Shown one piece after another: positions 23,988-25,102 of a DNA stretch of 25,102 nucleotides (the stretch's first letter is position 1; the number at the start of each line of letters is the position of its first letter). This DNA is from a virus (taxonomy: Duplodnaviria; Caudoviricetes). The notes under the pieces are model-generated. The model had not been told where the DNA came from, did no database searches, and worked only from the letters and a program-made list of their open reading frames with translations. The translations under genes and the position numbers were made by a program. Location of the stretch: positions 1 to 25,102 of IMG/VR virus record IMGVR_UViG_3300009409_000040; one strand, 5' to 3'.

Positions 23988-24144
23988 TTTCCTAAACTTC
24001 CTTTTTTTTTCTAAATTCTTTTTCATTTAGCTGGACAATTGTCTAGTATATAAAAACACACCCTATACTATGTATATCGGTTTTTTCAGGTTTTTACGAC
24101 ATTTTTTCTTCATTTATTTTCATTTATTTTTGACAATCGTTATA

Positions 24145-24157: not shown

Positions 24158-24410
24158 CATTTTATTTTTATTTTCAATTATAAACTTTTTTTTATTTTTA
24201 CTAGACATTCCTAAATAATACTTAGGGGTCTAAGCATTATTTGATTACGCTTTTCATTCGCTAGTGAAATACGTGTCAGTTTTTTGGAAATTGAAAGGTG
24301 TGGTCTGGGAGGTGCCAAGGCTCTCCTAGGGGGTGGTACGAAATCAAATGAGGGGCACCGCCCCCCGAACATCGACATCTCTCTAGTCACTCTCTCGATG
24401 CAAGCGGGTA

Positions 24411-24495
24411 CAACTGTCTAGACAACTGCCCCTCCCACTGCCCCTCCAACTGTCTAGACAACTGCCCCTCCAACTGTCTAGACAAACTGCCTCCC
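24411..24495. repeat. tandem 24-bp repeats containing the palindrome TGTCTAGACA
   Basis: CAACTGTCTAGACAACTGCCCCTC at 24411 and 24447, a variant at 24471, and a half unit CCACTGCCCCTC at 24435. Confidence 0.9.
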
Positions 24496-24613
24496 AAGAT
24501 TGTGGATGGAAGTGCGGGGAGTGTGAAGGGGTTGTGCTACCAGCAACTGTCTAAGTGCCCGCATGCGCTCACATCCACTCACAAACTTTTTTGCAAGTTT
24601 CTCAATTAATCGC

Positions 24614-24642
24614 TTGACGGTTGGCAACCGTGCACTTAAGTT
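24614..24642 (+). promoter_or_regulatory. sigma70-like rightward promoter with overlapping operator-like inverted repeat
   Basis: TTGACG-17 bp-TAAGTT with an AT-rich upstream element. ACGGTTG-G-CAACCGT (24617-24631) overlaps the -35 box and spacer. Confidence 0.65.
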
Positions 24643-24795
24643 CAATTCACCAGCCCGGAGACAACCGGGAGGCCCGGTCCACAGGACAGCAGCGCCACAC
24701 AAATCTCCGCCCCGGTTAGTAAGCCGAAAGCTGAGACGCCGGGGCGGGTCACGGAGCCTCAATGAGGTGCGATCCCGGTCCTGCCTAGCAGGGGA

Positions 24796-24847
24796 ATAGT
24801 CGCGGTTGATACTGGCCGCCTGACGAGATCAAGGGGATCGAAACTAT
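24796..24847 (+). ncRNA. type III hammerhead self-cleaving ribozyme
   Basis: ATAGTC / stem I GCGGTT-GATACT-GGCCGC / core CTGACGA / stem II GATC-AAGGG-GATC / GAAA / CTAT pairing with ATAG (stem III). Predicted cleavage is after GUC at 24801. Confidence 0.88.
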
Positions 24848-24932
24848 GACCACCGACACACTGACAGTGAAACAGGGCCGATCCTACTAAACCACGATCA
24901 ACCCAACCCAACCCAACAAGGATACCAAGAAC

Positions 24933-25102
24933 ATGACATTAAAATTCAAAATGACTCGCAACGTAGACGGCGGCACGGCAGTTGTTAAAGCCGATTATAA
25001 GATCGTTCGGTTCTATCGTAACGACAAGCCGTGCCGGACAATTAAAGCCGGATTGACGCTGAAAGAAGCGCAAGCGCATTGCAGCGACGCGGCAACGTCC
25101 AC
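24933..25102 (+). CDS. small early-type phage protein (runs off the right edge)
   Basis: My translation is MTLKFKMTRNVDGGTAVVKADYKIVRFYRNDKPCRTIKAGLTLKEAQAHCSDAATS..., open to the edge with AAGGA upstream. I recall YKIVRF...GLTL.EAQAHC from small phage proteins of unknown function. Confidence 0.65.
   Translation, partial: MTLKFKMTRNVDGGTAVVKADYKIVRFYRNDKPCRTIKAGLTLKEAQAHCSDAATS

Follow-up and report, generated by a model that had tools for sequence, protein, structure and literature searches.

The early region of the uncultured marine phage studied here appears to open with an optional non-coding cassette, composed of an early promoter, a conserved folded leader RNA and a type III hammerhead ribozyme. 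In the reading that we favour, and to which we give about an even chance, the hammerhead frees the leader as a folded small RNA of ~150 nt, which likely acts on its own by binding protein. The leader RNA is likely to be a small RNA gene that is made first on infection. The ribozyme and its position are of a known kind; the RNA upstream of it is unclassified and conserved.

Genome context and early promoter

The window, that is the whole stretch of DNA analyzed, is a complete virus record of 25.1 kb. Its minus strand carries the genes for the small and large terminase, portal, major head and tail proteins, and the nearest portals and capsids of cultured phages are those of epsilon15, BPP-1 and BcepC6B-type podoviruses (45–58% identity). 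The leader element is located where the divergent early region, on the plus strand, begins. No tRNA or tmRNA gene was identified in the window with ARAGORN. At least half of the words of the region were found in 12 of the 20 sequencing runs listed for it, all 12 being marine or seawater metagenomes and two of them possible sources of the record. None of the 20 is listed as an RNA run, which carries no information on expression. Contigs from four of four further runs match the element letter for letter where they overlap it, and a single 312-nt contig covers the whole of it; the leader element is therefore not an assembly artefact.

The early promoter (24614..24642, plus strand) comprises a -35 sequence TTGACG (24614-19) and a -10 sequence TAAGTT (24637-42), separated by a 17-nt spacer. 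It scores 8/12 in the window, which is below calling in the scan, and the aligned site in the loci L124 and L130 scores 10/12. Upstream of it lies a T-tract (24587..24600, plus strand), identical in the alignment with L124 and L130, which may be an UP element. As judged from the promoter match, transcription would start at A24649. A back-to-back promoter (10/12) overlapping the T-tract is present in L124 (977-1006) and L130 (4914-4885), and was not called in the window by the scan. A promoter-motif search returned no record beyond the two already known.

Two stretches of the neighboring sequence were noted in passing. Repeats of CAACTGTCTA, with the palindrome TGTCTAGACA occurring three times, are found between the divergent operons (24411-24553, also 24036-24046); they are possible operator, origin or packaging sites, and a copy is kept in locus L002. 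Upstream of the late genes lies a GC-rich non-coding stretch of 55 nt (24319-24374) that includes a minus-strand terminator-like hairpin; its identity to L002 is 84%, compared to 59% between the terminases.

An exchangeable slot behind the promoter

The same promoter is followed by different sequences in different phages. In L130 and L131, the matches of which score equally and which may be one phage, it precedes a homologue (60% identical) of the first gene of L119 and L124, with a leader of 28 nt and no hammerhead. Two further contigs run from the same promoter into a similar short leader. A third (run X15, record 8; joined at window position 24653) leads from the promoter into unrelated GC-rich sequence, of which 30 of 158 letters are visible; a different RNA or ribozyme may occupy the slot there. 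The bounds of the insert are the putative start site and the first AUG. Since the same promoter and first gene occur with a leader of only 28 nt, and other contigs diverge at this place, the slot is exchangeable and the first gene is independent of the 150 nt. The promoter-ncRNA-hammerhead unit is thus, as far as these comparisons indicate, an optional cassette. The sequence following the AUG in the window differs from that in L119 and L124. The identity of the cassette is 91–96%, against a mosaic pattern in the genes downstream of it.

Predicted fold of the upstream RNA

The predicted 5′ cleavage product (24649..24801, plus strand) would be a non-coding RNA of 153 nt without a known family. 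Five hairpins, P1–P5, were distinguished in it. P1 (24654..24669, plus strand) has 5 bp in the window and 4 bp in L124; it is the weakest element and the least conserved hairpin, its outer pair being lost in both L119 and L124. The P2 domain (24671..24696, plus strand) contains a hairpin formed by 24677-80 and 24684-87, the only one with compensatory changes; it was absent from the list in an earlier note on this DNA, which had been made from the letters of the window. P2 is possibly extended by the pairing of 24671-73 with 24694-96 across an invariant internal loop, and this modelled extension never varies. P3 (24706..24748, plus strand) is built of a 10–11 bp stem, the internal loop (U)AGUA / GAGAC, a 3-bp upper stem and a variable loop; its 9-bp stem is formed by 24707-15 and 24739-47 and encloses 24716-38. 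Changes at 24716 and 24745 keep the pairs of P3, and its loop has changes as well as an insertion. P4 (24756..24768, plus strand) varies in its loop only, and a pairing of 24669-76 with 24752-60, predicted in the window, competes with it. P5 (24780..24792, plus strand) is invariant in L119 and L124 and adjoins stem III of the hammerhead. Two more pairs can be added to stem III, and another three can close it around P5 (24777-79, 24793-94, 24849-54), with either of two different downstream genes; P5 may therefore belong to the periphery of the ribozyme. The hammerhead and the four hairpins that the earlier note had described (P1, the 9-bp stem, P4 and P5) were correctly located there.

The long stem of P3 is more stable than in shuffled sequences (z -4.63, 1/200 shuffles; region chosen after sight), and a stem with at least nine Watson-Crick pairs arises in 9 of 300 shuffles. 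The whole 235-nt region folds marginally (z -1.73, 10/200 shuffles). Among the elements, P3 alone is clearly above chance; P2 and P3 are backed by substitutions, and the other hairpins are predicted.

As the earlier note had recommended, Rfam was searched with ribozyme motifs included. The upstream RNA gave no gathering-level match in Rfam 15 (including SRP, riboswitch, RAGATH and other ribozyme models), the best scores being E 0.41 in the window (on the wrong strand) and E 1.3 in L124, and the hammerhead was matched below the gathering level. The view that the upstream part has no named RNA class was thus upheld. Resemblances of the upstream RNA to SRP RNA, twister and the T-arm of a tRNA were considered and dropped, there being no match in Rfam or with ARAGORN. 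The leader has no complement of at least 12 nt in the window or in the next 2.9 kb (27.5 kb examined), which makes a cis-antisense role unlikely. The 8-mer CCCGGTCC, to which attention had been drawn as a repeat, does occur twice, with the first copy starting at 24673 (not 24674) and a spacing of 101; no meaning for it is supported, as 716 of 2000 shuffles also contain an 8-mer repeat and L124 has a changed first copy.

Conservation of the leader

In a scan of one metagenome, three of 25 matches (L105, L119 and L124) were homologous; the other 22 were set aside as unrelated. L105 is identical to the window over 1202 bases and reaches 2.6 kb further. Together with a 151-nt contig (run X13), a fourth, partial variant with 15 differences (11 of them listed), these loci make up the homologue set, in which the leader is represented by three distinct sequences and that partial one.

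Between L119 and L124, the leader and hammerhead are identical in 163 of 179 columns (91%), compared to 16 of 27 fourfold sites (59%) in the first gene that they share (Fisher p 9e-5). This high identity could instead come from recent exchange. Of the 102 paired positions, 8 differ among the variants, and seven of these retain their pair: four form two compensatory pairs in P2, while the remaining three are single changes that are all accommodated by G-U pairs, which fits an RNA transcribed from the plus strand. The eighth breaks the outer pair of P1. Variation was found at 7 of 31 loop positions versus 14 of 169 others (p 0.026), and all three indel events are in hairpin loops. Since one-base indels shift any frame, there is no conserved reading frame, and the upstream RNA is non-coding. 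An ORF of 78 aa (24563-24799) was rejected: it begins upstream of the putative start site and is frame-shifted in the homologues. Conservation of the upstream RNA is seen at unpaired and paired positions alike.

The variants were partly taken into account when the structure was drawn, and the two compensatory P2 pairs may be one event. The covariation test of homologues for which the earlier note had called was not significant with three sequences (47/500 shuffles); the evidence thus consists of conservation and well-placed changes, not of proven covariation. We consider it probable that the leader is under selection as a folded RNA. Together with the near-consensus promoter of the relatives, the conservation of the RNA and the structure-compatible changes support the earlier proposal of a promoter-plus-ribozyme unit that would define an ncRNA of ~150 nt.

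The hammerhead alone might matter, by setting a stable 5′ end that is ready for translation; in that case the upstream RNA would be a disposable, recently exchanged passenger. Relatives do without the upstream RNA, the fold of the whole region is marginal, and mosaic downstream genes next to a nearly identical cassette are what recent recombination would give. However, the changes are placed with regard to the structure (in loops, in kept pairs and in two compensatory pairs), and hitchhiking alone predicts nothing of this kind. We therefore regard a passive leader as unlikely.

Further homologues were sought in several ways. The exact inner-hairpin motif had no match in viral contigs, and the leader motif none in species genomes; searches with the P4 motif and the internal-loop motif gave 3 and 20 matches, respectively, none of them homologous (in the latter case by eye). 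A profile of the first gene gave four weak matches in species genomes, judged to be unrelated. Among 80 small-terminase loci, the two close ones stop short of the leader, at 424 and 629 bases upstream of the terminase. Blastn against cultured phages and plasmids returned short chance matches or nothing. A covariance model of the three sequences detected no new homologue in 89 sources, where the next-best loci (L108, L118 and L127) had been preselected by the same motif, nor in 5 viral records. The same was true of 151 genomes of the class of a Rhizobiales genome, possibly the wrong group for the host; three matches among these genomes (E 0.001–0.004) lack P3 or everything except P3.

The hammerhead ribozyme and the embedded start codon

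The leader ends in a type III hammerhead (24796..24848, plus strand), with the cut predicted after C24801. It consists of stem III (24796-800/24843-47, 5 bp), stem I (24802-07/24814-19, 6 bp) and stem II (24827-30/24836-39, 4 bp). The core contains CUGANGA (24820-26) with the C3-G8 and G10.1-C11.1 pairs (the latter G24827-C24839), GAAA (24840-43), the A15.1-U16.1 pair and a UH site (GUC, 24799-24801). In the minimum-energy fold of 24790-24855, stems I and II are closed by loops and stem III is open; the ribozyme stretch by itself folds to the hammerhead shape. The Rfam model RF00008 (Hammerhead_3) matches 24794-24849 with 29.7 bits (E 4e-4), below its gathering score of 48.5. Since the defining core and stems are present, we read this sub-threshold match as a divergent type III hammerhead. 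It shares with RF00008 the core, GAAA, the GUC cleavage triplet and the open stem III, and differs in its low score and in having a ribosome site in loop II and an AUG in stem III. The sole core change in the homologues is at the free position 7. For a tertiary contact between loops I and II, two possible pairs were seen by eye, and loop II varies in L119. Our own hammerhead descriptor gave six matches in 138 sequences (1.0 Mb, both strands), all of them in the window and the three homologous loci. The hammerhead is very probably active.

The ribozyme overlaps translation signals. A Shine-Dalgarno-like AAGGGG (24831..24836, plus strand; GAGG in L119) lies in loop II, 9 nt ahead of an AUG that is embedded in the 3′ strand of stem III, where the first two bases of this codon (24846-48) are paired. 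In L119 and L124 the AUG opens a gene of 68 aa, the family of which comprises 21 protein clusters. In the window it opens an ORF of just 14 codons (24846..24890, plus strand), which counts against the favoured reading. This ORF starts with MTTDT, like a different early gene of L119 (start 820), and may be a recombination remnant behind the hammerhead. The first full early gene (24933..25102, plus strand; 67 aa in the identical contig L105) has its own ribosome site. The predicted accessibility of the Shine-Dalgarno sequence after cleavage goes up in L119 (0.36 to 0.62) and L124 (0.48 to 0.61), and goes down in the window (0.45 to 0.25).

A second hammerhead, of type I, is found 1773 nt downstream in the same phage (L105 1244-1188, minus strand), and also in L119 (370-316, minus strand), with stem loops that differ between the two. 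In L105 and L119 there are thus two hammerheads, of types III and I, flanking short gene blocks. In the early operon of both phages, the type I hammerhead is followed by a shared leader and ribosome site.

Alternative folds and roles of the leader

Another point against the favoured reading is that, in the window, the active fold of the full precursor is predicted to fall short of the ensemble in stability by 4.1–7.5 kcal/mol, the penalty being 2.2–8.0 kcal/mol across the three sequences; cleavage may therefore be slow. The leader might instead act as a switch in cis. The segment CGATCCC (24770..24776, plus strand; CGAUCCC in RNA) is complementary to 24834-40, which takes in the 3′ arm of stem II together with some of the Shine-Dalgarno sequence. 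As a blocking helix it would break stem II and mask the ribosome site, and a protein or ligand bound to the upstream domains would decide on hammerhead folding, cutting and release of the first gene. With ViennaRNA, the probability of this 7-bp helix is 0.90–1.00 in the window and L124 and 0.70–0.99 in L119; it forms once 24840 is transcribed, and without the segment the penalty falls from about 5 to about 1 kcal/mol. A 7-bp match to the 13-nt target of the segment occurs in 150 of 3000 shuffles. However, shuffled leaders penalise the hammerhead equally (mean 4.98 versus 5.04 observed, 66/150), 1104 of 3000 shuffles contain 7 bp of complementarity to the ribozyme somewhere along its length, and the single change that touches the helix (L119, 24834) breaks a pair and is uncompensated. 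Moreover, tertiary contacts stabilise natural hammerheads, and folding models such as the one used here leave them out. A switch of this kind is improbable in our opinion.

In the earlier note, alternative folds gating cleavage had been suggested on the basis of another helix. Complementarity between CGGTCCTG (24776-83) and CAGGGCCG (24873-80) does exist, and CGGUCCUG was thought to pair with CAGGGCCG around the hammerhead in alternation with P5; the eight pairs form a duplex of -13.1 kcal/mol in isolation. The enclosing helix is at chance level, as such a helix is found in 73 of 400 shuffles, and its ensemble probability is 0.00. Because the sequence following the AUG differs in the homologues, the 3′ arm is gone in both diverged ones (L119 and L124), where the best partner is G-U-rich, provides six pairs and lies elsewhere. 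This toggle is extremely improbable. Gating by alternative folds would have to rely on the blocking helix described above, which is possible yet not above the shuffle null.

The antiterminator RNA of the HK022 put type consists of hairpins that modify RNA polymerase for read-through. The leader is positioned at the very start of the early operon and its hairpins P1 and P2 are adjacent, so a comparable role of the post-start hairpins in the nascent RNA, promoting read-through of the early operon, can be envisaged. No terminator-like site was found on the early strand in a scan of L105 1-3300, P1 is the hairpin that is conserved least, and cleavage would separate the RNA from the transcript; we judge this role to be very unlikely.

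A model for the cassette

We return to the reading in which the hammerhead releases a small RNA. Host RNA polymerase would start at about A24649, as the promoter match suggests, and the leader would fold into P1–P5. The exact core predicts a cut by the hammerhead after C24801, yielding an RNA of 153 nt with a 2′,3′-cyclic phosphate end and an mRNA with a 5′-OH end capped by stem I, in line with known hammerhead chemistry. With the 5′ piece lost, the AUG located in stem III is predicted to become unpaired. The released RNA might then act in trans while infection is only minutes old, most likely by binding protein as a decoy or scaffold, with the invariant internal loops of P2 and P3 as candidate surfaces. 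That the 5′ RNA is dispensable for the first gene, conserved and without a long complement suggests a function of its own via protein binding. For action in trans itself, we put the chances slightly below even.

CsrB and RsmZ are decoy small RNAs in which repeated GGA is shown in hairpin loops. The upstream RNA is similar in being a short multi-hairpin RNA, here with five GGA triplets; unlike in CsrB and RsmZ, none of the five is centred in a terminal loop, and there is no Rfam match.

More tentatively, and rather doubtfully, the hammerhead may replace a terminator in maturing the product of a small RNA gene that occupies an exchangeable first-transcript slot. The 153-nt RNA would then represent an undescribed trans-acting family, such as a decoy for a defence protein or an RNA-binding protein of the host, and the cut would also turn on the first gene by freeing its AUG.

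The cassette suggests a concrete purpose for a hammerhead, which would make both the 3′ end of a small RNA and the start of the mRNA behind it. With less than 200 nt, it is testable by in vitro transcription without a host, and natural phages that have or lack it can be compared. Should the released RNA prove to have a target in the host, phages would possess a new kind of effector that is made first.

Relation to known systems

That phages carry hammerheads in front of early genes has been known since 2011. In the haloviruses HF1 and HF2, a hammerhead (HHphage) directly precedes the first ORF of a polycistronic early transcript, the 5′ end of which was mapped near the cut, and 13 nt separate the ribozyme from the start codon downstream, according to the available portion of PMC3088659 (Perreault et al. 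2011). The position before the first early ORF is common to both systems; here the AUG is inside the ribozyme, and a conserved structured RNA lies upstream of it, unlike in HF1/HF2 as described in that portion of the article. In view of this precedent, the term 'undescribed system' applied to the cassette in the earlier note was too strong. The same article (PMC3088659) describes clustered hammerheads that flank genes in phages and prophages and proposes that they cut transcripts into gene-sized mRNAs. Likewise, two hammerheads bracket small early genes in L105; here, however, the first piece is geneless and is itself conserved.

The glmS riboswitch-ribozyme (PMC6765202, in the sections at hand) resembles the cassette in that a self-cleaving RNA lies in a 5′ leader and could control expression of the downstream gene; it belongs to a ribozyme class other than the hammerhead. 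In the same sections of this 2019 review, the role of bacterial and phage self-cleaving ribozymes is called largely elusive. A ribozyme-released phage small RNA was not found described in the literature searched, subscription journals being mostly outside the search.

Finally, an intergenic stem was observed in four copies, all on the minus strand (L105 ~2632-2585, L119 ~1386-1338 and ~897-850, and L124 ~217-165). It had no match in Rfam, and a search with its motif gave none. The base of the stem is fixed (AAGCYTTCA...GAGTGCTT), while the upper stem varies freely yet is always paired. Each copy is located between a stop codon and a CCCAAC-rich spacer with a ribosome site, and we presume that the stem may be an RNase III-type processing signal.
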